Origin: an uncultured Aliarcobacter sp.
GTDB taxonomy: Bacteria > Campylobacterota > Campylobacteria > Campylobacterales > Arcobacteraceae
Length of the DNA stretch: 64,000 nucleotides
Reading direction: 5' to 3'
Assembly (NCBI GenBank): GCA_963664305.2
Contig: CAXXLV010000001.1
Location: 800,001-864,000, forward strand
The translations under genes and the position numbers were made by a program. The notes below the pieces were generated by a model. It did not search any database. It was not told where the DNA came from and saw only the letters and a program-made list of their open reading frames with translations. Below, in pieces: positions 11,448-64,000 of this stretch (within the stretch, counting starts at the first letter, position 1; every line of letters begins with the position of its first letter).

Positions 11448-11915
11448 ATGGATTTTAAAGACATCAAAGAATTAATTAGAGTTTTCGACAAAAGCGAACT
11501 TAACAAATTAAAAGTTAAAGAGGGTGAATTCGAAATCTCTATGCAAAGAGGTTTTGAAGGTGTTGTAACTACTGTATCAGCTGCTCCAGCAGTTGCTGCT
11601 CCTGTTGCAGCTGTTAGTGCACCAGTTGCAACTGTAAATGTTGCTTCAACTGAAACAGCAACTACAGCAAAAAGTGGAGATATGATTAACTCTCCAATGG
11701 TTGGAACATTCTACTCTTCACCTTCTCCAGAATCTCCAGCATTCGTAAATGTAGGTGATACTGTTAAAAAAGGTCAAACTCTTTGTATTTTAGAAGCGAT
11801 GAAAATCATGAATGAGGTTGAGGCTGAATTTGATTGTAAAATTTTAGAGATTCTTGTTAAAGATGGTTCTCCTGTTGAGTATGATATGCCAATTTTTGTT
11901 GTTGAAAAATTATAA
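11448..11915 (+). CDS. accB: Biotin carboxyl carrier protein
   Basis: SPMVGTFY; EAMK biotinylation motif. Confidence 0.96.
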   Translation: MDFKDIKELIRVFDKSELNKLKVKEGEFEISMQRGFEGVVTTVSAAPAVAAPVAAVSAPVATVNVASTETATTAKSGDMINSPMVGTFYSSPSPESPAFVNVGDTVKKGQTLCILEAMKIMNEVEAEFDCKILEILVKDGSPVEYDMPIFVVEKL

Positions 11916-11924
11916 GAGTTAAAT

Positions 11925-13277
11925 ATGGCAGAAATTAAAAAAATTTTAATAGCTAACAGAGGAGAAATCGTTCAAAGAGCTGTTAGAACAATAAGAGAAA
12001 TGGGAAAAAAATCAGTTGCTATTTATAGTGCTGGTGATAAAAATGCATCATATTTAAAACATGCTGATGAAGCTGTATGTATTGGTGGTGCAAAATCAAG
12101 TGAATCATACTTAAATATTCCAGCAATTATCACTGCTGCTGAAATGACAGGTTGTGACGCAATTTTCCCAGGATATGGTTTCTTATCTGAAAATCAAGAT
12201 TTTGTTGAAATTTGTAGATTACACAATATCAAATTTATTGGTCCATCTGTTGAAGTTATGGAAAAAATGGCTGATAAATCAAAAGCAAAAGAAGAGATGA
12301 TTAAAGCTGGAGTTCCTGTTGTTCCAGGATCTAAAGGTGCTGTTCACTCTGTAACTGAAGGTAAAAAAGTTGCTGCTGAGATTGGTTACCCAATTATGGC
12401 AAAAGCTGCTGCTGGTGGTGGTGGAAGAGGAATGAGACTTATTAAAGAAGAATCAGAATTCGAACAACTATTCATGGCAGCATCAAGTGAAGCACTTGCC
12501 GCATTTGGTGATGGAACAATGTATCTTGAAAGATTTATTAATAATCCAAGACACATCGAAGTTCAAGTTGTTGGAGATTCTCATGGTAATGCAATTCATA
12601 TTGGTGAAAGAGATTGTTCTTTACAAAGAAGACATCAAAAAGTTATCGAAGAATCACCTGCAATTTTATTAAATGATGAAACAAGAGCTAAACTTCATGA
12701 TGTTGCAGTTAAAGCTACTAAATATTTAAAATATGAAGGTGCTGGAACATTTGAATTCTTAGCAGATGACAAACAAAATATCTATTTTATGGAAATGAAT
12801 ACAAGACTTCAAGTTGAGCATCCAGTTTCTGAAATGGTTTCAGGTATTGATATTGTTGAACTTATGATTAAAGTTGCTGAAGGTGAAAAAGTTCCTCCTC
12901 AAGAAGCAATTAAATTTAGAGGTCATGCTATTGAGTGTAGAATTACAGCTGAAGATCCAAATACTTTCTTACCTTGCCCAGGAAAAATCACACAATGGAT
13001 GGTTCCAGGTGGAAGAAATGTAAGAGTTGATTCTCATATTTATACAAACTATGTAGTTCCTCCATATTATGACTCAATGATTGGGAAACTTATTGTTTGG
13101 GGAAGAGATAGAAATAAAGCTATTAATATCATGAAAAGAGCTTTAGCTGAATTTGAAGTAGAAGGAATTAAAACTACAATTCCATTCCACCAAAAAATGA
13201 TGGAAAATGAAGATTTCATCTCAAATAACTACGATACAAAATACTTAGAAAACTATAAAGGTCTAGGTGATTTATAA
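11925..13277 (+). CDS. accC: Biotin carboxylase
   Basis: ILIANRGEI, GGGGRGMR, EMNTRLQVEHP. Confidence 0.96.
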   Translation: MAEIKKILIANRGEIVQRAVRTIREMGKKSVAIYSAGDKNASYLKHADEAVCIGGAKSSESYLNIPAIITAAEMTGCDAIFPGYGFLSENQDFVEICRLHNIKFIGPSVEVMEKMADKSKAKEEMIKAGVPVVPGSKGAVHSVTEGKKVAAEIGYPIMAKAAAGGGGRGMRLIKEESEFEQLFMAASSEALAAFGDGTMYLERFINNPRHIEVQVVGDSHGNAIHIGERDCSLQRRHQKVIEESPAILLNDETRAKLHDVAVKATKYLKYEGAGTFEFLADDKQNIYFMEMNTRLQVEHPVSEMVSGIDIVELMIKVAEGEKVPPQEAIKFRGHAIECRITAEDPNTFLPCPGKITQWMVPGGRNVRVDSHIYTNYVVPPYYDSMIGKLIVWGRDRNKAINIMKRALAEFEVEGIKTTIPFHQKMMENEDFISNNYDTKYLENYKGLGDL

Positions 13278-13281
13278 GAAT

Positions 13282-13299
13282 AAGAGCTCTGCTCTTTTT
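13282..13299 (+). terminator. Intrinsic terminator after accC
   Basis: AAGAGC-TCT-GCTCTT followed by TTT. Confidence 0.6.
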
Positions 13300-13511
13300 C
13301 TTAAAGCTTAAATTTATCTAAAATTAGCTATACTCCGCAAAATTATACACATTTATATACCCATTAAACTTTGATAAATCAAAGTTTCATTTTCAGAACT
13401 GACACTTGCAAGGCTCAATTTGCGTTTTATATTGTACATCTATGGGAAATAGGCTTAAATCTATATTTATATAACCGTGTATATTTTAATATTTATATAC
13501 AAAGGTAAAAA

Positions 13512-52654: not shown

Positions 52655-53530
52655 TTATATCGAGAAATACTTAATAATATCTGAATTTAAGTTTTCTATT
52701 ATATTTGAAGTTTTATTTAAAAATTGACTTTTATTAAACGTATTTTGTCTTTTTGCAAGTTTAGCTGTATTTAATGAAATCTTTTCTTCAAGTTCAACTT
52801 TTGATAATTTACCATCTAAATACTCTAAAGTTTCAATTATTCCAATTGATGACATACAATTTGGTGCCCTTGTATATTTTTTTTCTAAATAAATAATCTC
52901 ATCAATTAATCCAGCTTTTATCATCTGATTTGTTCTTAAATTTATTCTTTTTTTTAGTTCTTCTTTATCCCATAAAATTTCAAATATTTTTAAATCTTTT
53001 GCTACAGCAATTTTAGGATTTTTTTCAAAATAAATAGAAGGAGTTAGACCAGTTTCTTTATAAATTGCATAAGCTTTTTCTATTCTATATCTATCATTTT
53101 TTTCAATTTTCTGCATATACTCTTTATCTAATGAATATAAAAGTTCATATGCTTCATTTTGAGGTAAATCAAGCTTTATTTTTGATTCAATACCTAAAGA
53201 TAAACCTTCTGTTAGAGCTTTTAGATAAAAACCTGTTCCACCAACGATAATTAAATTTTTAGCATTGTCTAAAGCATAATTTTTTGCAGTTTTGTAAAGT
53301 TCAATAAATTTTATAACATCAAAATCAACATTGGGATAAACTTCATCTATACCAAAATGAATAATATCACCTCTTTCTTCAACAGTTGGTTTTGCAGAAA
53401 CAATATCTATTTCTTTATAAACACAAAGAGAATCAAGAGATAAAATAATCGAATTTGTTTTTGATGCAATTTCTAAAGATAAAGCAGTTTTCCCTGAGGC
53501 TGTAGAGCCAATAATTGCAATTTCTTTCAT
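52655..53530 (-). CDS. miaA: tRNA dimethylallyltransferase
   Basis: GSTASGKT, VGGTGFY, AKRQ. Confidence 0.94.
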   Translation of the reverse strand: MKEIAIIGSTASGKTALSLEIASKTNSIILSLDSLCVYKEIDIVSAKPTVEERGDIIHFGIDEVYPNVDFDVIKFIELYKTAKNYALDNAKNLIIVGGTGFYLKALTEGLSLGIESKIKLDLPQNEAYELLYSLDKEYMQKIEKNDRYRIEKAYAIYKETGLTPSIYFEKNPKIAVAKDLKIFEILWDKEELKKRINLRTNQMIKAGLIDEIIYLEKKYTRAPNCMSSIGIIETLEYLDGKLSKVELEEKISLNTAKLAKRQNTFNKSQFLNKTSNIIENLNSDIIKYFSI

Positions 53531-53731
53531 TTATTTTGTTTTCGATTCTTTACAATCTTCAAGTTTTTTATTAAGTTCATTTATCTCTTTTTCTTTTTGA
53601 ATTAAAGTTCTTAATAATTCTGATACATCATTTGTACTTGAATTTGAAACTTCATTTTCAGTTTTTGTAGCACAAGCTGTAAAATTGAATAAAAACAGTA
53701 AACTTAAAATTAATAACAAATATTTTTTCAT
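53531..53731 (-). CDS. Small lipoprotein with coiled coil
   Basis: Signal peptide with FTAC lipobox. Confidence 0.75.
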   Translation of the reverse strand: MKKYLLLILSLLFLFNFTACATKTENEVSNSSTNDVSELLRTLIQKEKEINELNKKLEDCKESKTK

Positions 53732-53822
53732 GAAACTCTTTTTTGTATAAAATATACTAGATTATAACTAGAAAAAGTTTAATTTTTATTTTTTTAATAA
53801 TATCTTCGATAAAATCCCAAAC

Positions 53823-54683
53823 ATGAATAAACTGATAAAAAAACTTAATGATTTCAATGAACTAGTGATGTTCAAACACTCAATTTTTTCACTACCTTTT
53901 ATTTTTATTGCAATGGTAGTTGGTGCCAAAGGTTGGTTTGGTTTTAAACTTTTAATTCTTGGTGTAATGGCAGCTTTAACAGCTAGAAATTTTGCAATGG
54001 GATTTAATAGATTTATGGATAGAGATATAGATGCTTTAAATCCAAGAACTATAAACAGACCAAATGTTGATGGAAGAATCAGTCCCACTTCAATGTTTAT
54101 TTTTGTATTATTAAATGCAATTGGATTTATTGTTGTTGCCTATTTTGTAAATGATTTAGCTTTATATTTATCTATACCTATTTTGATTATCATTGGCTCA
54201 TACTCTTATTTTAAAAGATTTTCATTTTTAGCTCATATTATTTTAGGAATATCTTTAGGTTTAGCTCCTATTGCAGGAGTTGTTGCTGTTACTGAAACAA
54301 TTCCTTTTTGGGCAATAATTTTAAGTCTTGGTGTAATGTTTTGGGTTGCTGGATTTGATTTACTTTATTCTTTACAAGATATAGAAGTTGATAAAAAACT
54401 TGGACTTCACTCTATCCCATCAAAATTTGGTGTTGAAAAAACTATGTTCATTTCAAAAGTTTTTCATGCTTTAACTGTATTTTTTTGGCTTTTATTTGTT
54501 GTGTTATCTGATAGTTCTTATTTTGCTTACGTGGCAGTTGTTTTAAGTGCATTGATGCTTGGTTATGAACACTATTTAGTAAATAAAGATTTCAAAAAAA
54601 TTGATAAAGCATTCTTCACTGTAAATGGATATTTAGGGATTATATTTTTTATTTTAATTGTACTTGATAATATCTTTTTTTAA
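53823..54683 (+). CDS. mqnP: UbiA-family prenyltransferase of futalosine-pathway menaquinone synthesis
   Basis: HSIFSLPF, NRFMDRDIDALNPRT, YSLQD. Confidence 0.88.
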   Translation: MNKLIKKLNDFNELVMFKHSIFSLPFIFIAMVVGAKGWFGFKLLILGVMAALTARNFAMGFNRFMDRDIDALNPRTINRPNVDGRISPTSMFIFVLLNAIGFIVVAYFVNDLALYLSIPILIIIGSYSYFKRFSFLAHIILGISLGLAPIAGVVAVTETIPFWAIILSLGVMFWVAGFDLLYSLQDIEVDKKLGLHSIPSKFGVEKTMFISKVFHALTVFFWLLFVVLSDSSYFAYVAVVLSALMLGYEHYLVNKDFKKIDKAFFTVNGYLGIIFFILIVLDNIFF

Positions 54684-54739
54684 ATCATTACAAAAAATTT
54701 AAGTATAGCTATGCTAATATTCCAGCCTATTTTTTAGGT

Positions 54740-54816
54740 GCGTCTGTAGTTCAACTGGATAGAATGGCCGGTTTCGACCCGGTAGGTTGTGGGTTCGAAT
54801 CCTACCAGGCGTGCCA
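54740..54816 (+). tRNA. tRNA-Arg (anticodon TCG)
   Basis: Full cloverleaf: acceptor GCGTCTG/CAGGCGT, anticodon stem GCCGG/CCGGT with loop TTTCGAC, T-loop TTCGAAT, CCA end. Confidence 0.95.
54798..54816 (+). repeat. att core at the tRNA end
   Basis: AATCCTACCAGGCGTGCCA. Confidence 0.93.
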
Positions 54817-54830
54817 CTATTCCTTAAAAA

Positions 54831-54845
54831 CCCTTAAAATAAGGG
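54831..54845. terminator. Hairpin between the tRNA and the integrase stop
   Basis: CCCTTA-AAA-TAAGGG. Confidence 0.5.
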
Positions 54846-54848
54846 CTT

Positions 54849-56012
54849 TCAAATACTCTCATTTTTTTTAGGTGTCAATTCGGTGTCTAATGGTGTCAGA
54901 ATTTTTTTAAAACAATTTCCGAAATTCATATTCTGAATTGGTATATATTGTGAATATTTTTCAAGAGTTATTTTTACATTTTCGTGTCCAGCAATTTTAC
55001 TCACATAGTTTATATCTTCCCCATTACTAATTAGAGTTGATATAAATGTTCCTCTTGTTTGATGTAGATTTCTATATTCTACATTTGCTTTTTCTATTAT
55101 TGGTATCCAAATTTGTTCTCTTATTTTTCCAGCTGAATGAAAATGTTTATTTGTTCTTGTTGTTAAAAATACAAATGAATTATGATTCCCCGTTATTATT
55201 TTTTGATTTTCTAAAAAAGGAATTAAAGGTTCTATTATTGGAATAATTCTCTTGCTTTTAGTCGTTTTCAAAATATCTTTTATTTGCCCGTTTACAATTT
55301 GTCTCTTTACTGTGATAGTTCTATTTTCAAAATCTATACAATCCCAAGTTAGACCTATACATTCTCCTATCCTTAATCCAGTCATAAAAAGAACGGCTAT
55401 TAAGTTTTTATCTTGATTGGTAGCCACTGATAAAATTTGAATTATTTCTTCCGTTTTAAAAGGTGTTAGTTCTATTCTTTTAACTTTTGATTGTTCAGTT
55501 TGTTTTATTGTTTTTACCTTTTTAATAGGATTTATTTTAATAATTTCATTTTCAATAGCATCTTCAAACATTGTATATAACAATCCCCTAATTTTTAAAA
55601 TATAGCTTTTAGATAATTTATACTCTTTTTGAAGATTGTTTTGCCATAAAGTAATTTCAGAAGGTTTTACTTTATCTAATGTTTTATGCCCAAATGTTTC
55701 CTTTATATATTTATCATAATTCTTTTGGTGTCCATATATAGTGCTTTGACATCTACCACCTTTGTGTAATTCAAAAGAAAAATTCATATATTCTTCAACA
55801 GTTGGAATTTTTTTGTTTTGGTTTAATTCTCCATTCATTAGTTTGTATTGTAATATAGGAAGAATTTCATTTTCTGCTTTTTTATAATTAGCTTTTGTAT
55901 TTTCCATTTCAAGAGGTTTTCTGAATCTTTTTCCATTAATTGTATAGTTTACCCATAACCATTCTTTTGTTTGCCCTTTTTTATTTTTTACTTGTTTTAT
56001 ATAGATATTCAT
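54849..56012 (-). CDS. int: Tyrosine recombinase (phage-type integrase)
   Basis: N-terminal arm-binding-like domain; TGLRIGE, LKT, HQTR, GH and catalytic Tyr in KYSQY. Confidence 0.95.
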   Translation of the reverse strand: MNIYIKQVKNKKGQTKEWLWVNYTINGKRFRKPLEMENTKANYKKAENEILPILQYKLMNGELNQNKKIPTVEEYMNFSFELHKGGRCQSTIYGHQKNYDKYIKETFGHKTLDKVKPSEITLWQNNLQKEYKLSKSYILKIRGLLYTMFEDAIENEIIKINPIKKVKTIKQTEQSKVKRIELTPFKTEEIIQILSVATNQDKNLIAVLFMTGLRIGECIGLTWDCIDFENRTITVKRQIVNGQIKDILKTTKSKRIIPIIEPLIPFLENQKIITGNHNSFVFLTTRTNKHFHSAGKIREQIWIPIIEKANVEYRNLHQTRGTFISTLISNGEDINYVSKIAGHENVKITLEKYSQYIPIQNMNFGNCFKKILTPLDTELTPKKNESI

Positions 56013-56021
56013 TTTTTCTCC

Positions 56022-56342
56022 TTATGCTACATTTTCTAATATTCTATTTGCTAATAATTCATAATTTTTATTAGTTGTTTTATCTGAACACATTATCCAT
56101 TTATCAATTTCTGTTTTATCAAATATATTTTTCCTATGTTTTTTGTAATAGTGTAAGTCAATTACAAATTCTTCATCCTTAATCATATTTTTTATGCTCT
56201 CTTTGCTATATCCAATATATTCACTTAGTTCCTCTGTTGTTAACCATCGTTTTTCAATTTTATTCATTTCTCTATCTCTTAACAAAACTAATATGTTATA
56301 AATTTCTTGTATTTTTTCTAAATTTTCTAATGCTATATTCAT
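56022..56342 (-). CDS. Excisionase-like winged-helix protein
   Basis: WLTTEELSEYIGYSKESIKNM...IFDKTEIDKW; directly upstream of int. Confidence 0.8.
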   Translation of the reverse strand: MNIALENLEKIQEIYNILVLLRDREMNKIEKRWLTTEELSEYIGYSKESIKNMIKDEEFVIDLHYYKKHRKNIFDKTEIDKWIMCSDKTTNKNYELLANRILENVA

Positions 56343-56367
56343 TATATTTCCTTTTTATATTGATTTA

Positions 56368-56530
56368 GTGTACAAAAATCTACACATTGCAAATAAAAAA
56401 TATATGTCAATAAAAGTGTAGAAAAATGTACATTGAAATTCTATAACGAATTTACTTAAGTGTACATTAAAGTACACAAAAAATAAATCTTTAAACATTA
56501 TTAATATAAAATGTGTACAAAAAAATACAC
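56368..56530. promoter_or_regulatory. Four 18-bp imperfect palindromes GTGTA-N8-TACAC (putative operators)
   Basis: Copies at 56368-56385, 56416-56433, 56460-56477 and 56513-56530. Confidence 0.75.
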
Positions 56531-56542
56531 AAAGTTTATAGA

Positions 56543-56947
56543 ATGATTAAAAAGAAAAAAGAAAGAAAAAAAGTTTTATTGAATGATTTTGATAGTGACT
56601 TATTAAATAAAAAAGAAATTAATGAACTATTTGGAATTTTAAAAGAATTAAAAGAAAAATTAAAATTTTACATAGAAAAAAATGAATTAGATAATAAAAT
56701 AAAAAATATTGATAATTTATATTCAATTACAATACAAGAAACTGAAAGAAATATTAGACTACTAGCAACCATTTTAGAATTAAAAGATAATGAAGAAGTT
56801 GAAAAAAAGATTTCATTGGTTACATTAGCATTAAGCGATAAAAAAACTGATAAATATTCAGAAATTATAAATCTAAAAAGAGCATTTTATTCTTATAGAC
56901 ATTTATTAATCACATTAGAATTTTTAAATCCAAATTTAAATGAATAA
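56543..56947 (+). CDS. Hypothetical helical protein, divergent from xis-int
   Basis: Open frame; the track's GTG (56513) lies inside operator 4, so the in-frame ATG 56543 is preferred. Confidence 0.6.
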   Translation: MIKKKKERKKVLLNDFDSDLLNKKEINELFGILKELKEKLKFYIEKNELDNKIKNIDNLYSITIQETERNIRLLATILELKDNEEVEKKISLVTLALSDKKTDKYSEIINLKRAFYSYRHLLITLEFLNPNLNE

Positions 56948-57022
56948 TTAAACCTGACACTTTTAATTAAATAGGTCAAGAGTAAGCTTACAACTCACTT
57001 GCGTGAGTTTTCAGCTTACGAA

Positions 57023-58312
57023 CTATATATTTTTTGAGTAAATTTTAAGAATTGTATTTAAAAAATTGTCTGAAATAAAAGGTATTTGAAAAAGATTTTT
57101 ATCACTTGTAAAACCATTTTTAATAATTGCTCTACCTTTTGTAAAATCTTGAATTTCTTTCGTAGAGATTCTTTCTCGAATATTATCTTTTAAATCTATA
57201 ATATTTATATTATTATCGTTTGCAGTTTTTAATAATACTCTTGATTGAATATTATTTGTAATTGCAGTTGGTAGAATGGTACTATCAATTTTTTGACCAA
57301 ATAAAAATAATAAGATTCCTGAGGCTCTTCCTTGCATAGCTATCAAAGAAAGCTTATTAAATATAGATTCACGAATTTTTTTATCAGGATAAACACTAAC
57401 AGCACCTATCTCGTCAAATATTAGTAATGTATATGTATCTATTTTTCTAATATTATTTTCTAACATATATTTTTGAGTAGATTCCAATTCTTTTAAAACA
57501 CTATCTAGTAATATATCTAGTTTTTCAATACTTGAAACAAACTCTACATTATCAATTTTTTCATATTGTTTTAATTCAACTCCACCTTTGAGGTCAATCA
57601 TATACATTTTATTAAATCTATTAGAATTATGTAAAAAGTTTATGTTAAAAAGTTGCATTAAATTTGATTTTCCACTCCCTGATTCACCTACAATTAGGTG
57701 GTGGTCTAAAGAATTTATATCTCGATAATAAAAGCCTTTTTCATATATTCCTAGGAATAAGTAATCTTTTTTAAATAAAGAAAAATCAATAGAATAAAAA
57801 TTGGGTAACTTATAAAATGATAGAACTACACTTTTATTTTTTTTTGCTTTTATACTTACTTCATAATCATTTGAAATAATCCCCAAATAATGCAGGATTT
57901 TTTCTTTATTTTTTCTATAAGTTTCTAAATCAATTGAAACTAAATTTGCATATTCAAGCTCAAACCTTTTTAAATCCTTTGTAAAAATTTCTTCCAGAAC
58001 ATTTTTTGATTTAATATTTTTTTTAGATATAAAGAAATCCAAAAATAGTGTTCTTTTATTTCGTATCTCAATTAAAGTGTTATGTGAAAACAAGCTATGA
58101 AAGTTAAGAGAATAAGGCATTAAAATATATTTCCAGTTCCACATATAATATATAGAAACCAATAAAGAAGATATAGTAATCATGATGTATAAAGAATCTA
58201 ATTCCTCTTTAAAATCTTTTGTTGATAAACTTATTGCTGTAACATACATTATAAAACAAAAGAAGCCCATTATTAATAGGCTTCGGAAATAACTTATGAT
58301 TCCGTATATCAT
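57023..58312 (-). CDS. Membrane-anchored FtsK/SpoIIIE-family ATPase (TcpA/ConQ-like)
   Basis: 2 N-terminal TM segments; HLIVGESGSGKS, IDLKGG, LLIFDE, QGRASGI, LFGQK, GRAI. Confidence 0.88.
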   Translation of the reverse strand: MIYGIISYFRSLLIMGFFCFIMYVTAISLSTKDFKEELDSLYIMITISSLLVSIYYMWNWKYILMPYSLNFHSLFSHNTLIEIRNKRTLFLDFFISKKNIKSKNVLEEIFTKDLKRFELEYANLVSIDLETYRKNKEKILHYLGIISNDYEVSIKAKKNKSVVLSFYKLPNFYSIDFSLFKKDYLFLGIYEKGFYYRDINSLDHHLIVGESGSGKSNLMQLFNINFLHNSNRFNKMYMIDLKGGVELKQYEKIDNVEFVSSIEKLDILLDSVLKELESTQKYMLENNIRKIDTYTLLIFDEIGAVSVYPDKKIRESIFNKLSLIAMQGRASGILLFLFGQKIDSTILPTAITNNIQSRVLLKTANDNNINIIDLKDNIRERISTKEIQDFTKGRAIIKNGFTSDKNLFQIPFISDNFLNTILKIYSKNI

Positions 58313-58572
58313 TTTAACATAGGCTCACTTTGTGTAAAAAAAAGTTTGTTTTCAAAACTTGAAACTTTAACTGGGATTTTTACTGTTAAACCTTCTTTAA
58401 TAGATAAAGTATCATTTTTATCAGTTAATTTTATTTGTTGAATTTCAACACCACCGTTATCATTTTTATTAAGGAATTGTACATATATAACTTCTTCTTC
58501 CTTATACATTTTCTTTGCCATTGCAAAAACTTGACCTGTTATAATTATTTTTGAATTCATTTTTTTCTCCAA
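58309..58572 (-). CDS. Small beta-rich protein, putative ssDNA-binding/OB fold
   Basis: 87 aa with an alternating beta-strand pattern (IIITGQV, VIYVQF, VKIPVKV); between rep and the ATPase; the fold is inferred. Confidence 0.6.
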   Translation of the reverse strand: MEKKMNSKIIITGQVFAMAKKMYKEEEVIYVQFLNKNDNGGVEIQQIKLTDKNDTLSIKEGLTVKIPVKVSSFENKLFFTQSEPMLK

Positions 58573-58575
58573 TAT

Positions 58576-59754
58576 TTAAATTTTTATTTTTATATATTTT
58601 TCTTTTTTATAAACTAATTCTTTATTTATAAAAATTTCTAACTTGTCAATATAATTGTGACAAGCACCTTTAACTGAAAATTGTGTGATATATTTAAAAA
58701 GAATTATGGAAGAATTTTTATTCACTAAAAATTGATTTATGTTAGTTTGCCCTTTTTGTTTAACAAACTTTATAATAGATATATTTTTTAAAATATAATA
58801 AAAAATACTTTTACCAGTTGATGAAGCTTTTTTTAATAGCTTATCTTTTTCATTCCTATCTATACTGTGATAAATAGTCCTATAATCACCTAAAGATAAA
58901 TCTAAGTTCGATGAAGTGATTATTTTAATTTTATTAACTCTTTTCCAGCCGTCAAGTAGTCGAGCTAAATAATAGTCTGAACCCGTTTTTAGAGACTTAG
59001 TTATATATTTCATTAAATATAATGCAGGTCTACTAATACCAGATTTAAATCTGATTTTTTCTAATTCTTTCTTATCAAAATGAACTAAGTTAAAATCGTT
59101 TTGATTCAACTCAAATTCATCTATAATTTTATCAAATTTTTCTCTTACTTTTTCACTTATGCTACTTTTTTTGTTTGTTATTTTTGAATTCTTTTTTTTA
59201 CTTTTTTTAACAATAGTTTCATCTTTTACATAAAGTAAAATGTGAACATGTGGAATTAAAGTTTTATGTATTTCAAATACTTTAATATAATAAAGTTTTT
59301 TTGAAATATTTTTTATTCTTTTATAAAAAACTCTAAATACATTATTTAAAAATTTGTAACCTTGCAATATTGATTCTTCTATACTTTTAAAATCAAAATT
59401 TTTATTTATGCTAGTGTATAATCTTCTATTTTTATAATTTATAGAAGAAAAAGGATGAAAATTTGAAGGTAAAGTAAAAGTAATAAATATAGGCATTAAA
59501 CCTTCTTCTTTTGCCAAATCTTCAATGCAAAAAATTTTTTGTTCTATTGATTTTATATATTTTTTATAATTATTATCAAAGGAATAATTAATATTTAGGC
59601 ATTCACCAGTTTTTTCGTTACTAAACAAATATTTTTTTAAATAATTTTGTTGATTTAACTCCTTCCGTAAAGATGTTTTATAGTAAGAATCTTTTAAAAA
59701 TTCATATTGACTGAATAAAGGTTCTTCTTGCAATTCTTTAGTTGCATATATCAT
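58576..59754 (-). CDS. Rolling-circle replication endonuclease (HUH, two-Tyr, phage gpA-like)
   Basis: Motif I FITFTLPS, motif II PHVHILLY, motif III YLMKYITK. Confidence 0.88.
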   Translation of the reverse strand: MIYATKELQEEPLFSQYEFLKDSYYKTSLRKELNQQNYLKKYLFSNEKTGECLNINYSFDNNYKKYIKSIEQKIFCIEDLAKEEGLMPIFITFTLPSNFHPFSSINYKNRRLYTSINKNFDFKSIEESILQGYKFLNNVFRVFYKRIKNISKKLYYIKVFEIHKTLIPHVHILLYVKDETIVKKSKKKNSKITNKKSSISEKVREKFDKIIDEFELNQNDFNLVHFDKKELEKIRFKSGISRPALYLMKYITKSLKTGSDYYLARLLDGWKRVNKIKIITSSNLDLSLGDYRTIYHSIDRNEKDKLLKKASSTGKSIFYYILKNISIIKFVKQKGQTNINQFLVNKNSSIILFKYITQFSVKGACHNYIDKLEIFINKELVYKKEKYIKIKI

Positions 59755-60015
59755 TTAATTTTCTCTCTGAAACTCTTTCATGAAAATCATGAAGAGCCTA
59801 GAAGGAAAGAAGAGTTTTATTTTAAATTTTTAGTTTATTTTGCACCTTTATTTTAGATGTTATATATAGTTGTAAAAAAAAATATAAGTTTTTCTCTATT
59901 TATTTTATAAATAGGAATAAAAAAATTATGAAATAATAATTTTCATTGGAACTTTTAATATAATAATTGTTAGTATTGTAAAATATTAACGATATTAACC
60001 TAAGGAAATAAAAGC

Positions 60016-62481
60016 ATGATAAAAGCATTTTTATCTCATTCTTCATCGGATAAAGACAAATTTGTTAGAATAGTTGCCGATAAGCTAAAAAACAAACATG
60101 GAATTCACTATGATGAATATACTTTTGAAATAGGAAATAAAACAATTGATGAAATTTTAGAAGGTTTAGATAAAACTGATTTATTTGTTTTTTTTATTTC
60201 AGAAAATTCATTAGAATCAGAGTGGGTAAAAAAAGAAGTTTTAGTTGCAACAAATAATTTAGGAAATAGGACAAAACAGTTTTATCCAATTATTATTGAT
60301 AAAAACATTACATATAAAGATGAAAGAATTCCTGAGTGGTTAGTAAGTGAATATAATATTAAATTTGTAAGTAAGCCAACAGTTGTAGCTAAACGAATTG
60401 AACAAAAATTAAGAGAAATATCTCTTAAAAAACATCCAAAATTAATGAAAAAAAATAATTTATGTATAGGTAGAAATAAAATTCTTGAAAATTTTGAGGA
60501 AAGATTAGATAATTTTGAGAAAGCTCAACCTAAATGTATAATTGCAACGGGACTAGAATCAATTGGAAGAAGAACATTTTTAAAATATGCTCTTGTTAAA
60601 ACGGATATTATCAATCAATACTACACCCCAAATTCTATTTATCTTGATACAAATGATAGTATAGAAGATTTTATTTTAAAAATAAATGATTTTGGATTTT
60701 TAGATATTGATTCAGATTTATCAGATTTATTATCTAAAAATCAAGACTATAAAATAAATTTAGCAATTAATATTTTAAAAGAAATACAATCAAACAATGA
60801 AATTATTTTGATATTAGATAATGGTTGTATTGTAAATTATGAAAGAAAATTTTCTAATTGGTTTAGAAAAATAATTGAGTCTAGTGAATTAGATAATAAA
60901 GTTCTTATTTGTACTGCTTCAAAATATAAAGTTCATTATACTGAAATTAATAATGATGCCTTTTATTCGGAGCATGTTGATGATTTAACTCCATCTGAAA
61001 GAAAAAGATTATTTAAAAGATTATTAGAAATATATGATATTGAAATGGTAGTAGATGATTTTAACTATATAAGTGATACTTTCAAAGGTCTTCCTGAACA
61101 AATTTTATATTGTGTAGATTATATTGATAGAACTAATATAGAAACTGTGAAAAAAAATATTCATGAAATTAGAGAGTTTAATGATGAAAAAGCTTCAGCG
61201 CTTATTAAACATTATCAAGAAGATGAGTACATATTGTCTTTAATAAGATTAATTGCTCAATTTGAGATAATAAGCATAGAGTTTTTAAATGAGATAATAT
61301 CTGATGAAACAATTAATGAAATATTAGAAATATTAGTTACAGAAAATATTTGTGAATATTTTGGTTATGATGGACAATTTATCAGAGTAAATGATTCCAT
61401 TAGAGATTATATAATTAGGAATAGATTAAAAATAAAAGAAGAATATTTAACTAAAATAAAAACACATGTTTCAGCATTTATTCGTTCTGATGAGAAAATT
61501 GAAAAGGATTCTAGTGATTATTTGTTTTCTTTAAAACAAGCATTATTAGAAGGTGAAGAAATTGATGAAAATTTATTATTACCATCCCATTTTTTAAGAA
61601 CAATGAAAGATTTATATCATAATGGAAGTTTACAGAAAGTAATCGATTTAGCATATAAAGTTTTAGAGAAAGAAGAGTACATTGATTATTATTTAGCAAA
61701 TGATATAAAATACTATTTGTGTTTAGCTTTGGCAAAAAAAAGAGATAAAAGAGTTTTAGATGAAGTTCAAAGAATTAATGGTGATCAACATAATTTTGTT
61801 TTAGGATATTATTACAGATTAATAGGAGAATATACAAAAGCAATAGATAGATTGAAATCTATAGTTGATTCACAATATATAAAAGCAAGAGCAAAGCGAG
61901 AAATTGTACATTGTTATATTCAAACAGAAGGATATTCAAAAGCCCTTAGTTTTGCTAAAGATAATTATATAGAGAATAGAAATTATATATATCATGTTCA
62001 ATTATATTTTTATTGTCTAATTTATAGTGATAAAAGTTTTGAAAATAAAGAAGAACTTAGAAGAATTACTATTGAGTTAAAGAGATTGAGTGTGGAATCT
62101 AATATGGATATGGGAGACAGAGCAGAGGCTCTTTATCTAGCAAAGTGTGAGAATAAAGAAGAAGAATCATTAAGATTAATAAATGATGCAATTGCAAAAT
62201 ATCCAGATAGTTATTACCCGTTATTAACTAAATTTGATATTGCACTTAAATTTTATAATATAAATGAAATGGAAGATTGTATTTTAAAACTTGAAAAATT
62301 TAATGGTAAAACTTTATCTAAAAAAACATATACTAAACAAAAAGCATATTTTATTGCATTAAAAGAGAAAAATGCAACGAAAGCTAAACAGTTAATTATT
62401 GATGATTTAAATAAATATCCTCAGGAAGCAAAAGATTTGATTTTAGAAAAAATTGATTATTTAGCAAATAAATTAAAATAA
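60016..62481 (+). CDS. TIR domain-STAND-like NTPase-TPR protein, candidate anti-phage defence
   Basis: TIR: AFLSHSSSDK...SEWVKKE; then IGRN, variant P-loop GLESIGRRT, ILILD; helical-repeat C-terminus. Confidence 0.82.
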   Translation: MIKAFLSHSSSDKDKFVRIVADKLKNKHGIHYDEYTFEIGNKTIDEILEGLDKTDLFVFFISENSLESEWVKKEVLVATNNLGNRTKQFYPIIIDKNITYKDERIPEWLVSEYNIKFVSKPTVVAKRIEQKLREISLKKHPKLMKKNNLCIGRNKILENFEERLDNFEKAQPKCIIATGLESIGRRTFLKYALVKTDIINQYYTPNSIYLDTNDSIEDFILKINDFGFLDIDSDLSDLLSKNQDYKINLAINILKEIQSNNEIILILDNGCIVNYERKFSNWFRKIIESSELDNKVLICTASKYKVHYTEINNDAFYSEHVDDLTPSERKRLFKRLLEIYDIEMVVDDFNYISDTFKGLPEQILYCVDYIDRTNIETVKKNIHEIREFNDEKASALIKHYQEDEYILSLIRLIAQFEIISIEFLNEIISDETINEILEILVTENICEYFGYDGQFIRVNDSIRDYIIRNRLKIKEEYLTKIKTHVSAFIRSDEKIEKDSSDYLFSLKQALLEGEEIDENLLLPSHFLRTMKDLYHNGSLQKVIDLAYKVLEKEEYIDYYLANDIKYYLCLALAKKRDKRVLDEVQRINGDQHNFVLGYYYRLIGEYTKAIDRLKSIVDSQYIKARAKREIVHCYIQTEGYSKALSFAKDNYIENRNYIYHVQLYFYCLIYSDKSFENKEELRRITIELKRLSVESNMDMGDRAEALYLAKCENKEEESLRLINDAIAKYPDSYYPLLTKFDIALKFYNINEMEDCILKLEKFNGKTLSKKTYTKQKAYFIALKEKNATKAKQLIIDDLNKYPQEAKDLILEKIDYLANKLK

Positions 62482-62609
62482 AAATCTATAATTCAATTGG
62501 TGTCAAATTGGTGCCTTTAAATACCATTTATTAGCTTCATAAAATATAATTAATATTTTAGGAGTAATGACTAAATGGTATTTATTAGTTAAGAGTTCGA
62601 TTCCTATAA

Positions 62610-62628
62610 AATCCTACCAGGCGTGCCA
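62610..62628 (+). repeat. Distal att core (copy of the tRNA 3' end)
   Basis: AATCCTACCAGGCGTGCCA, identical to 54798-54816. Confidence 0.93.
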
Positions 62629-63070
62629 TTTTTAAATCTAACACAATCCAAGATAGTCTATAAAATCCCGATAAAATCAAGCTTCTTGTTAAATATTAAT
62701 CTAACTTATGCTAATGTAATCTAATTAAATATAGAAAAAATTAGGGCGTTTGTTAGGGCGTAAGCCAAAAATATTGAAATTATCAAAAATTTATGCCCAG
62801 ATATTTTAATAGAACATTGTAAATACAGAAGTTAAGAGGATATTCAAAAATCTTCAAACTATTTCTATTTATTTTTTTATTTATATTATTCTAAAAAATG
62901 AAAATTTATGAATATTTAATTATTAATTGTAATATTAGATTATTTAATTATTTTTGAATAAATAAGCATTCAAAAATGTATTTAAAAATAATTAGTTTTA
63001 AGTTTTTCTTTAGTGTATCTTGTGTTAGAATATATCCCAAGTTAGAAAAACTCTAATTCAAGGATAATAT

Positions 63071-63619
63071 TTGCCATATCTTGTTTCATCAATAATTGCA
63101 ATTGTTTCAGCTTTAATAATTTTACTTACTAGATATGAAGCTGATGACAGTACAATAACAAGTGAACTTGATAGAATGAAATCTATGTTTATAACAATGG
63201 ATGGATTTGTAAATACTTATATTCAATCTGGTGGAACTTTATCAAGTATAAATTTTGAGGAATTGGATAAAGCGGGTATTTTATTATCAAATATGGAAAT
63301 AACTCCAGTAGCAGATACAAATTCTAGTACTGGTGAAAATAAAACTACAACAAAATTTCCAAATAGTGAAGTGATTTGGCAAATTATACCAAATATAAAT
63401 GACACTAGTTCATATAAACTTTTAGTAGATATGTCAAAAGCTAGTGCATTGATGAGTAAGGCTATTTTCTCAGAAAGTTTCTCAGGTCGAGAATTTTGTG
63501 AAAAGATGCTTTTTGGTACATTTGATCAAAATGGAAGTGCATATGTTGAGGGAACAAAAGATTTTGGAACAACAGGCACAACAAAAGACGGAATTTTTGT
63601 TTGTATAGTTTTTAAGTGA
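63071..63619 (+). CDS. Hypothetical protein with N-terminal hydrophobic helix (pilin-like)
   Basis: TTG start after AAGGA; TM helix, amphipathic helix, two C-terminal Cys. Confidence 0.7.
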   Translation: MPYLVSSIIAIVSALIILLTRYEADDSTITSELDRMKSMFITMDGFVNTYIQSGGTLSSINFEELDKAGILLSNMEITPVADTNSSTGENKTTTKFPNSEVIWQIIPNINDTSSYKLLVDMSKASALMSKAIFSESFSGREFCEKMLFGTFDQNGSAYVEGTKDFGTTGTTKDGIFVCIVFK

Positions 63620-63700
63620 TTTTTGGTGCAACTAAAATAATAGTTGTTGTATAATAGGGCGGTTGGTAGGTAAACTTAAATTTAATAAAGGGGAAAGAAA

Positions 63701-64000
63701 ATGCCACAGTTGATAGCTATGATTATCGTAGTAGTTGGAGCAATGATTTATATGTTCCAAACATTTGGAGGAACTGGAGATAAAATCGAAGGTATTGCAC
63801 AAAAAACAAGTATTATTACTGAAATTAATAATATAAAAGATGGGGTTAAAATCGCAGCTAAATCAGAGCAAATTGCAAGTACAGCATCAGGTGATAAAGT
63901 TAACACTTTAGAGGGATTAGCAGCTCTTTCATATTTTGCAGAACAAATTAATACACAATTAACTGATACAAATAATAATGCAAATAATGCAAATATATAT
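63701..64000 (+). CDS. Hypothetical pilin-like protein, truncated by the window end
   Basis: Not in the ORF track; MPQLIAMIIVVVGAMIYMFQTFGGTGDKIEGIAQKTSIITEINNIKDG..., open to the edge; purine-rich RBS. Confidence 0.75.
   Translation, partial: MPQLIAMIIVVVGAMIYMFQTFGGTGDKIEGIAQKTSIITEINNIKDGVKIAAKSEQIASTASGDKVNTLEGLAALSYFAEQINTQLTDTNNNANNANIY

Follow-up and report, generated by a model that had tools for sequence, protein, structure and literature searches.

Among the streptococcal elements with a relaxase of the rolling-circle replication (RCR) type, 83 of 118 also encode TcpA, and a compact tcpA-relaxase-xis-int layout is described for them in two surveys (Coluzzi 2017, PMC5357655; Guedon 2017, PMC5704250); according to a further study, TcpA homologs also occur in ICEBs1 and Tn916 (PMC3548315). 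In the pSAM2-type elements of actinomycetes (te Poele 2008, PMC2440964; Bordeleau 2012, PMC3429521), int, xis, an RCR rep gene, and the gene for a single FtsK-like translocase are combined within about 10 kb next to a tRNA gene, and transfer by TraB in actinomycetes needs no type IV secretion system. In Thermus thermophilus, the ATPase TdtA of the element ICETh1 pushes DNA out of the cell and the competence system of the recipient takes it up, a process called 'transjugation' (PMC5365140, PMC7767461). The present study concerns a 7812-bp unit found in a 64,000-nucleotide stretch of the genome of an uncultured Aliarcobacter species of the Campylobacterota (contig CAXXLV010000001.1, positions 800,001 to 864,000; the whole stretch is called the window, and all positions refer to it). 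Its core consists of the genes for a replication initiator (Rep), a small OB-fold protein, and a membrane-anchored ATPase, and we read it, with a probability of roughly 0.55, as an integrative mobile element that would replicate as a rolling circle and export its DNA through its own translocase.

In its presumed way of working, the element most resembles the mobilizable elements of Firmicutes with an RCR-type relaxase and TcpA, and in its layout the pSAM2 type, but it appears to be a member of neither, because its Rep family, extra OB gene, gene order, and diderm host differ and a compatible helper pore was not found. Like the streptococcal elements, it is compact and integrated at a tRNA gene, carries genes for a tyrosine integrase and an excisionase between direct repeats, and lacks pore genes; in both cases a rolling-circle initiator seems to replace the canonical relaxase and is accompanied by the element's own membrane ATPase of the FtsK branch. 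In contrast, the host here is a diderm from the Campylobacterota instead of a member of the Firmicutes, the Rep belongs to the gpA-like family PF05840 and not to the Rep_trans, Rep_2, or Viral_Rep type, the genes are ordered rep, OB gene, ATPase gene instead of tcpA followed by the relaxase gene, and an OB-fold gene belongs to the core. The DNA-processing module of ICEBs1 and Tn916 consists of NicK/Orf20, ConQ/Orf21, and HelP, and thus combines a replicating RCR-type relaxase, a TcpA-type ATPase, and a small OB-fold accessory protein; the present core resembles it with its putative replicating relaxase, its FtsK/TcpA-like ATPase, and its small protein with a predicted OB fold. However, these elements encode a full MPF_FA type IV secretion system and a PF02486 relaxase, neither of which is represented among the seven open reading frames (ORFs) of the window element.

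The set of int, xis, RCR rep, and one FtsK-like translocase gene at a tRNA gene is common to the present element and the pSAM2 type, whereas its Rep matches the RepSA family (PF20199) weakly (E 0.0062; 16.2 bits, the cut-off being 34) and spread genes are absent. TraB contains a C-terminal DNA-recognition domain and is set apart by this feature from the ATPase described here, whose model stops at the motor domain without any extra C-terminal DNA-reading domain; moreover, TraB moves double-stranded DNA between mycelial monoderm cells. ICETh1 likewise resides integrated in a bacterial host whose envelope has an outer layer, but it is larger than the present element and is not known to contain a Rep/SSB core.

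Core proteins and gene content

All seven ORFs of the element were scanned against Pfam and PHROGs, and PADLOC was used for cargo and defense functions. The rep gene (58576-59754, minus strand) codes for a protein of 392 amino acids, which is predicted to be a two-tyrosine HUH initiator of the gpA-like type, as proposed in a preliminary description made from the window sequence alone. It matches PF05840 above the cut-off of this family (E 9.7e-13) as well as PF23343 (1.8e-5), and the residues T92/T94, H169-V-H171, and Y246-LMK-Y250, including K249, are invariant in 24 homologs; no match to the MobT relaxase family PF02486 was obtained.

The small gene downstream of rep (58309-58560, minus strand) codes for 83 amino acids if read from its ATG, and the 87 amino acids given previously apply only to a start at the TTG at 58572. 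The assignment as a beta protein has stood and could be extended to a predicted fold: although no sequence family match was found in Pfam or PHROGs, an AlphaFold2 model based on 16 homologs (mean predicted local distance difference test score, pLDDT, 90.7) consists of a five-strand barrel and one short helix. In Foldseek searches, the single-stranded DNA-binding protein (SSB), PriB, and Rim1 lead the matches in the PDB (template modeling score up to 0.70), and phage SSBs lead those in BFVD, so that the modeled fold is that of an OB-fold SSB. The ATG of the gene lies 15 nt past the rep stop codon and is preceded by GGAG, and the gene overlaps with that of the ATPase by the sequence ATGA, indicating translational coupling within the tight operon noted before.

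The third core gene (57023-58312, minus strand) codes for a predicted membrane-anchored, FtsK/TcpA-like DNA translocase of 429 amino acids (PF01580, 2.9e-13; phrog_1358, 1.4e-37). Its model, based on 30 homologs (pLDDT 88.6), starts with two long helices (residues 2-30 and 34-68) and a disordered linker, which are followed by an alpha/beta domain and a RecA-like motor reaching the C-terminus, with the last helix at residues 415-425 of 429. Together with the one or two hydropathy segments above threshold in the homologs, this agrees with the membrane anchor assigned earlier. The first six ranks of a Foldseek search are all occupied by TcpA of plasmid pCW3 (best E 4.7e-22, 21% identity), followed by FtsK motor domains (1.8e-18) and then by EssC and HerA, while neither VirD4 nor TrwB is among the matches listed, to rank 50. 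A search of the PDB with the single sequence likewise retrieved TcpA (6e-9) and no FtsK structure chain. All 141 matching plasmid records are from Firmicutes, the match in pCPF4969 (H43) being the gene that adjoins tcpM, and all 31 matching phage records are phages of Bacillus, Staphylococcus, or Listeria (22-27% identity); the host's own FtsK matches far more weakly (8.6e-4). As judged from these sequence and model comparisons, the ATPase belongs to the FtsK/TcpA branch and is nearer to TcpA and FtsK than to VirD4, in line with the TcpA/ConQ-like coupling ATPase envisaged in the preliminary description.

The remaining genes are arranged around this core. The int gene (54849-56012, minus strand) codes for a tyrosine integrase of 387 amino acids with a PF00589 catalytic domain (1.6e-21; phrog_1, 3.8e-59), an N-terminal SAM-like domain, and an arm-binding domain, whose individual catalytic residues were judged by eye, and the adjacent xis gene (56022-56342, minus strand) for an excisionase-type helix-turn-helix protein of 106 amino acids (HTH_17, 4.8e-7; also excisionase PHROGs, with TIGR01764 below its cut-off). 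Upstream of rep, a divergent intergenic region (59755-60015 in the ORF map) leads to the cargo gene (60016-62481, plus strand); a search of the 400 nt preceding rep gave no motif conserved across loci or clades. The cargo product of 821 amino acids is a predicted anti-phage protein of the TIR-NLR type (TIR_2, 5.6e-15), which matches PADLOC family PDLC03015 over its full length (E 2.4e-232, residues 1-818 aligned to 1-822 of 824), as expected from the defense cargo assumed earlier, and presumably pays for the carriage of the element. A variable spacer (56355-56950) between xis and the core contains a 144-codon ORF (56513-56947, plus strand), and none of the fetched loci matches the spacer at the DNA or protein level. 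This ORF is doubtful as a real gene: neither a family match (Pfam, PHROGs, PADLOC, and further profiles) nor a homolog in the fetched loci nor an atlas hit was found, and its atlas recognition score of 1716 is below the usual level of 2300. Capsid, VirB4, and MOB relaxase families gave no match to any of the seven ORFs, and the sole 'terminase' hit reflects weak similarity in the P-loop of the ATPase (7.5e-5), so that the reported absence of these genes holds. A promoter scan returned 75 promoter-like sites against 67.5 expected and is uninformative in this AT-rich DNA.

Integration site and the mobile 2.8-kb core

The 7812-bp unit is delimited by a perfect 19-bp direct repeat, AATCCTACCAGGCGTGCCA, both copies of which were read in the sequence (54798-54816 and 62610-62628) and are identical letter for letter, confirming the repeats and the unit length claimed before. 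The first copy, attL, forms the 3' 19 nt of a tRNA-Arg(TCG) gene recognized by ARAGORN (54740-54816, plus strand), a feature not noticed previously, and the unit therefore represents an insertion into this tRNA gene, with the second copy as attR. Two empty sites in the genus of the host agree with this: in genome G010, similarity to the left flank (53393-54818, 87% identical) stops at the tRNA gene and that to the right flank (62913-63852, 76%) starts again 82 bp on, while the flanks are 173 bp apart at the likewise empty site of G033. The approximately 285 bp past attR (62629-62912) have no counterpart at either empty site and may be the remnant of an earlier insertion or a fast-evolving spacer; a palindrome lies within the 82 bp of G010. 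Just inside attR (62573-62609), the T-arm of the tRNA gene is repeated in degenerate form, GTTCGATTCCTATAA, as is also the case in locus L056.

The same att core, 20-22 bp long, brackets related elements at the same tRNA gene in loci L055 and L056. The related elements at this site belong to Malaciobacter canalis (9.85 kb, 22-bp repeats) and Aliarcobacter cryaerophilus, a species of the host's genus (6.67 kb, 20-bp repeats). Three more family members are bracketed by 18-bp repeats at genes for tRNA-Leu (9.0 kb), tRNA-Cys (5.5 kb), and tRNA-Met (5.76 kb), bringing the delimited relatives to five, with sizes of 5.5-9.9 kb and repeats of 18-22 bp at tRNA-Arg, -Leu, -Cys, and -Met. Integrases encoded at the same tRNA-Arg site (L043, L044) are 82-84% identical to that of the window, and the Rep and ATPase proteins next to them only about 35%. 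Three GGTGTC repeats with a spacing of 10-11 nt just inside attL (54871-54897, plus strand) and two GGTGYC repeats on the attR side (62499-62515, plus strand) are candidate arm-type sites of the integrase: only eight GGTGYC sites occur in the window, three near attL and two near attR, and the arrangement recurs in L055 and L056, the two relatives with the same integrase. An earlier arm-site pattern, with three matches against 1.26 expected, was not significant and has been replaced by this count.

An inert, decaying island with non-working genes appears highly improbable as an alternative. One relative (L039) indeed contains a split integrase gene, and the window element comes without the accessory genes present in larger members, but its six supported genes are intact and retain their catalytic motifs, its repeats are perfect, and the repeat sets on both att sides are in place.

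The three core genes are closed off by a conserved cis site, which is newly recognized here. An imperfect hairpin directly follows the ATPase stop codon (56981-57022, minus strand), and next to it lies the AT-rich motif CTTGACCTATTTAATTAAAAGTGTCAG (56954-56980, minus strand), present in a single copy at the same place in relatives. The hairpin of about 35-40 nt varies in sequence between clades with its stem retained, six of the seven predicted pairs exhibiting compensatory changes among 12 aligned loci; the motif of about 27 nt comes after it. A search with a degenerate version of the motif gives a single match in the window, where 0.05 would be expected, and 36 of 159 loci likewise contain exactly one match each at the corresponding position; several of these loci are copies of one place. 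Among the 49 metagenome loci having sequence past the ATPase gene, a strict regular expression finds the motif in 25, and inspection by eye in all but four, namely L102, where it is degenerate, and L128, L130, and L135, where it is missing and which represent a variant type with a different Rep after the ATPase. The DNA homology of the core ends 0-4 nt past the motif (56951-56955), and homology in the window falls into one block comprising int and xis (54798-56354) and another comprising the core (56951-59597). From its position and conservation, hairpin plus motif is the best candidate for the nick site of Rep, acting as replication origin and possibly also as transfer origin.

The resulting 2.8-kb core recurs and moves as a block beside different integrases and cargo. 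Two copies in G010 share a core of 2864 bp at 90.5% identity between unrelated flanks, and a copy in a different genus (G161) is 87.9% identical over 2814 bp, which is as high as the identity of the housekeeping flank between the host and G010 (87%), members of the same genus. One of the G010 copies is L039, in which the gene for a long DUF6538-type integrase (11514-13347) is split into ORFs of 388 and 215 codons; this copy is probably immobilized, its core nonetheless sharing the 90.5% identity with the second copy. Two further loci contain mosaic cores: the ATPase, small protein, and Rep of L090 are 82%, 80%, and 47% identical to those of the window, and L104 is similar, with about 80% for ATPase and OB protein and 47-48% for Rep. 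Recombination therefore also occurs inside the core, between rep and the OB gene.

Distribution and cargo of the family

Homologs were searched across the Campylobacterota, and the counts over related genomes given here are not independent. Strong ATPase homologs of about 420 amino acids are encoded in 12 of 184 genomes of the host's family, including that of the host (G000), and the order of rep, small gene, and ATPase gene is found in 10 of 11 fetched family loci. The triad is also present on nine of 11 named genome contigs, the other two being cut by the contig end; these are assigned to Arcobacter, Sulfurimonas, Campylobacterales, Malaciobacter, and Aliarcobacter, and one is binned as Bacteroidales. 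Where metagenome loci left room for it, the small gene lies upstream of the ATPase gene in 40 of 44 cases and rep in 29 of 32, so that the conserved synteny with variable cargo expected from the preliminary description was indeed recovered. Within an even sample of 401 genomes from the phylum, seven genomes in addition to that of the host proved to contain the triad, in four GTDB families. Further taxa are Sulfurospirillum and Halarcobacter, plus Nitratiruptor for a more distant Rep, and a library of 1.84 billion representatives contains 83 clusters matching Rep at E values up to 1e-30.

Two integrase types occur in the family, either P4-like, as in the window, or a tyrosine recombinase of about 600 amino acids with DUF6538. 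The cargo is mostly related to defense and comprises AbiTii, GmrSD, a BsuBI/PstI restriction-modification pair, SocA/Panacea, an MmeI-like enzyme, Sel1 proteins, and a mercury/ArsR set. In larger members, these are joined by an XRE-like repressor, small membrane proteins and lipoproteins, and outer-membrane barrels of the eight-strand type. Such accessory envelope genes are located upstream of rep in L043 (6453-7178), L041 (6753-7382), L038 (11935-13371), L040 (12083-13079), and L042 (6068-7694), coding for a glycine-rich lipoprotein of 72-77 amino acids, membrane proteins with one or two helices, lipoproteins of 300-370 amino acids, and outer-membrane barrels of 172-175 amino acids; their products could be exclusion or envelope-crossing factors. 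A variant module in L045 (G012), L128, L130, and L135 starts with the ATPase gene, which is followed by the gene for a more distant Rep, without an OB gene in between and without the motif. ORFs of about 1720 codons in L026, L028, L030, and L021 (G006, G100, G022, and G009) match the ATPase with their C-terminal part (E 1e-9 to 1e-15); they may code for SspH-like defense proteins, because the ATPase itself matches SspH in PADLOC.

None of the phage, plasmid, or IMG/VR records holds the module, and full-text literature searches of openly available articles did not turn up an account of such an element from any diderm, Campylobacterota included. The match to an already described element or prophage family that had been considered at the outset was thus not obtained, and the element may be a member of an uncatalogued family of the Campylobacterota, which is possibly in print elsewhere.

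Proposed transfer and its alternatives

The following sequence of events is proposed. Int and Xis would excise the element, and the two-tyrosine Rep would nick the excised form at the hairpin and motif and drive rolling-circle replication. The small OB-fold protein would coat the displaced single strand or fulfill a helicase-accessory role like that of HelP, while a hexamer of the ATPase in the inner membrane would pump the DNA of the element out of the cytoplasm to another cell. With nicking and replication assigned to Rep and export to the ATPase, Rep would therefore be replicase and relaxase in one, and the ATPase the element's own coupling protein or translocase.

By analogy to described systems, two routes across the outer envelope are conceivable. 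A conjugative pore might be lent by a co-resident element, as is the case for streptococcal mobilizable elements; the close parallel to these elements speaks for this route, which we regard as a tentative option, while type IV secretion systems are rare in the hosts considered here and the partners of TcpA are of the Firmicutes MPF_FA type. Slightly less probable appears a pore-independent push followed by uptake through the competence system of the recipient, in favor of which one may cite the existence of minimal members of 5.5 kb, the scarcity of pores, and the precedents of TraB and TdtA. It is more doubtful still that the 2.8-kb core, consisting of Rep, OB protein, translocase, and cis site, represents a self-sufficient module for DNA export between diderm cells that dispenses with a type IV secretion system and relies on recipient competence.

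Several observations weigh against an element that exports its own DNA. The host genome, which is 99.96% complete and was scanned except for 8000 bases, contains neither VirB4 nor VirD4, the two markers by which a TcpA-compatible helper pore was looked for. VirB4 is encoded in 12 of 184 family genomes and in only two of the 12 element-bearing ones (G010 and G040), and TcpA-type proteins are known to dock only on MPF_FA systems of Firmicutes, as far as the sources indicate. To our knowledge, no MPF_FA helper has been reported from Campylobacterota. Terminal overlap indicating circularity was found in none of 57 metagenome contigs. The membership of the ATPase in the TcpA clade proper is not settled, because a search of solved structures with the family profile places FtsK (2.1e-14) slightly ahead of TcpA (1.5e-12), and in PADLOC the ATPase also matches the defense proteins SspH (1.9e-14) and mad8 (3.4e-11). 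Finally, the function of the hairpin could be limited to terminating transcription, which applies at least to the clade where a T-rich stretch follows it, whereas the clade of the window has no T-run after the stem and a simple scan calls no terminator there; the cis site may alternatively combine a terminator with some other protein-binding site. The likeness of the motif to the phiX174 origin amounts to little more than CTTGA with a G that is not invariant, and has been kept only as a lead.

The lack of a resident pore in the host also fits an ATPase without any role in cell-to-cell transfer, which would instead serve the maintenance of the circle, by segregation or membrane-anchored replication, or defense and exclusion, with the element spreading only by transformation or transduction. 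FtsK-like domains indeed occur in defense proteins and, in prophages of Firmicutes, beside replication-relaxation genes, and the host encodes ComEC and DprA, as do most control genomes. We nevertheless consider this explanation unlikely: a two-helix anchor on a hexameric motor for double- or single-stranded DNA is the layout of the membrane DNA movers FtsK, SpoIIIE, TraB, and TcpA, even the smallest members, of 5.5 kb, retain the gene, whose translation is coupled to that of the OB gene, and cores from different genera are nearly identical. A translocase is also paired with a replication or relaxation protein on the IMG/VR contig L160 (5667-7231), where an FtsK-like gene is directly followed by a Replic_Relax gene within a tailed-prophage fragment containing baseplate and holin genes.

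The relationships of Rep raise the further alternative of a filamentous-phage derivative or satellite, in which the pair of rep and ssDNA-binding genes would stem from inoviruses, the hairpin would be a packaging signal, the ATPase would replace the pI/Zot motor, and coat and secretin would be lent by a resident inovirus. A kinship not recognized in the preliminary description is consistent with this, since the nearest relatives of Rep outside its family are those of inoviruses and of filamentous prophages residing in the same hosts. The host itself harbors such a prophage (G000:C2, about 1568670-1575965; L068, 4670-11965), with ORFs of 486 and 137 codons and genes for Zot (363 amino acids), a secretin (431), a gpA-like Rep (437), and an integrase (338), and the Rep of the window is 28% identical to that of this prophage. 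Moreover, each of the nine IMG/VR contigs that contain distant Reps is matched by the prophage Rep as well, five of these contigs clearly carrying Zot and four also a secretin. In inoviruses, rep is directly followed by a small ssDNA-binding gene, and the packaging signal of Ff phages is a hairpin adjoining the origin; both arrangements would have their counterparts in the present core, and in larger members the region upstream of rep codes for lipoproteins, small membrane proteins, and small outer-membrane barrels.

This alternative would explain where rep and the OB gene come from, but it leaves the type of the ATPase, the missing coat genes, and the missing co-occurrence unexplained, and it is rated as distinctly unlikely. 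The element has an FtsK/TcpA-like ATPase in place of Zot, coat genes, and secretin: none of its ORFs matches the Zot family PF05707, a model that does find the true Zot of the resident prophage, and the ATPase, like TcpA and FtsK, is anchored through its N-terminal part. With their 5.5-5.8 kb, minimal members leave no room for coat genes; small membrane coat proteins were found neither in the window element nor in the 5.5-kb member L036, and small membrane proteins as such occur only in larger members. In the fold comparisons, the OB protein matches SSBs of cells and phages best and not specifically gene V protein of filamentous phages, and no family member is contained in IMG/VR. A true Zot gene (E <= 1e-7) is present in two of the 12 element-bearing genomes (G000 and G056), which equals the rate in the family (about 30 of 184). 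Neither VirB4 nor Zot travels with the element, and with 12 related genomes being too few, dependence on either is neither supported nor excluded. A mini element in the same host (G000:C2, about 1254310-1257717; L067, 8310-11717) contains genes for an integrase (353 amino acids) and a gpA-like Rep (348), an ORF of 94 codons and two small ORFs, and is devoid of the ATPase gene. RS1 and TLC-phi of Vibrio are Rep-only satellites of filamentous phages, and the mini element could be such a satellite of the filamentous prophage.

Islands of 5.5-10 kb in diderm Campylobacterota keep a pump and a rolling-circle Rep, usually without a resident type IV system, and the type of pump is so far known only on mobile elements of Gram-positive bacteria. 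This points either to a new kind of element that rides on the conjugation of Gram-negative bacteria or to gene transfer by a pore-independent route. If the core were indeed a self-sufficient export module, its ATPases would constitute a third clade of mobile-element translocases of the FtsK branch, beside TcpA in Firmicutes and TraB in Actinobacteria. The small core and the defined cis site would make the question easy to address at the bench. The hosts include both environmental and food-borne lineages, and the family moves anti-phage systems (TIR-NLR, AbiTii, GmrSD, restriction-modification, and the Panacea toxin-antitoxin system) together with metal-resistance genes.

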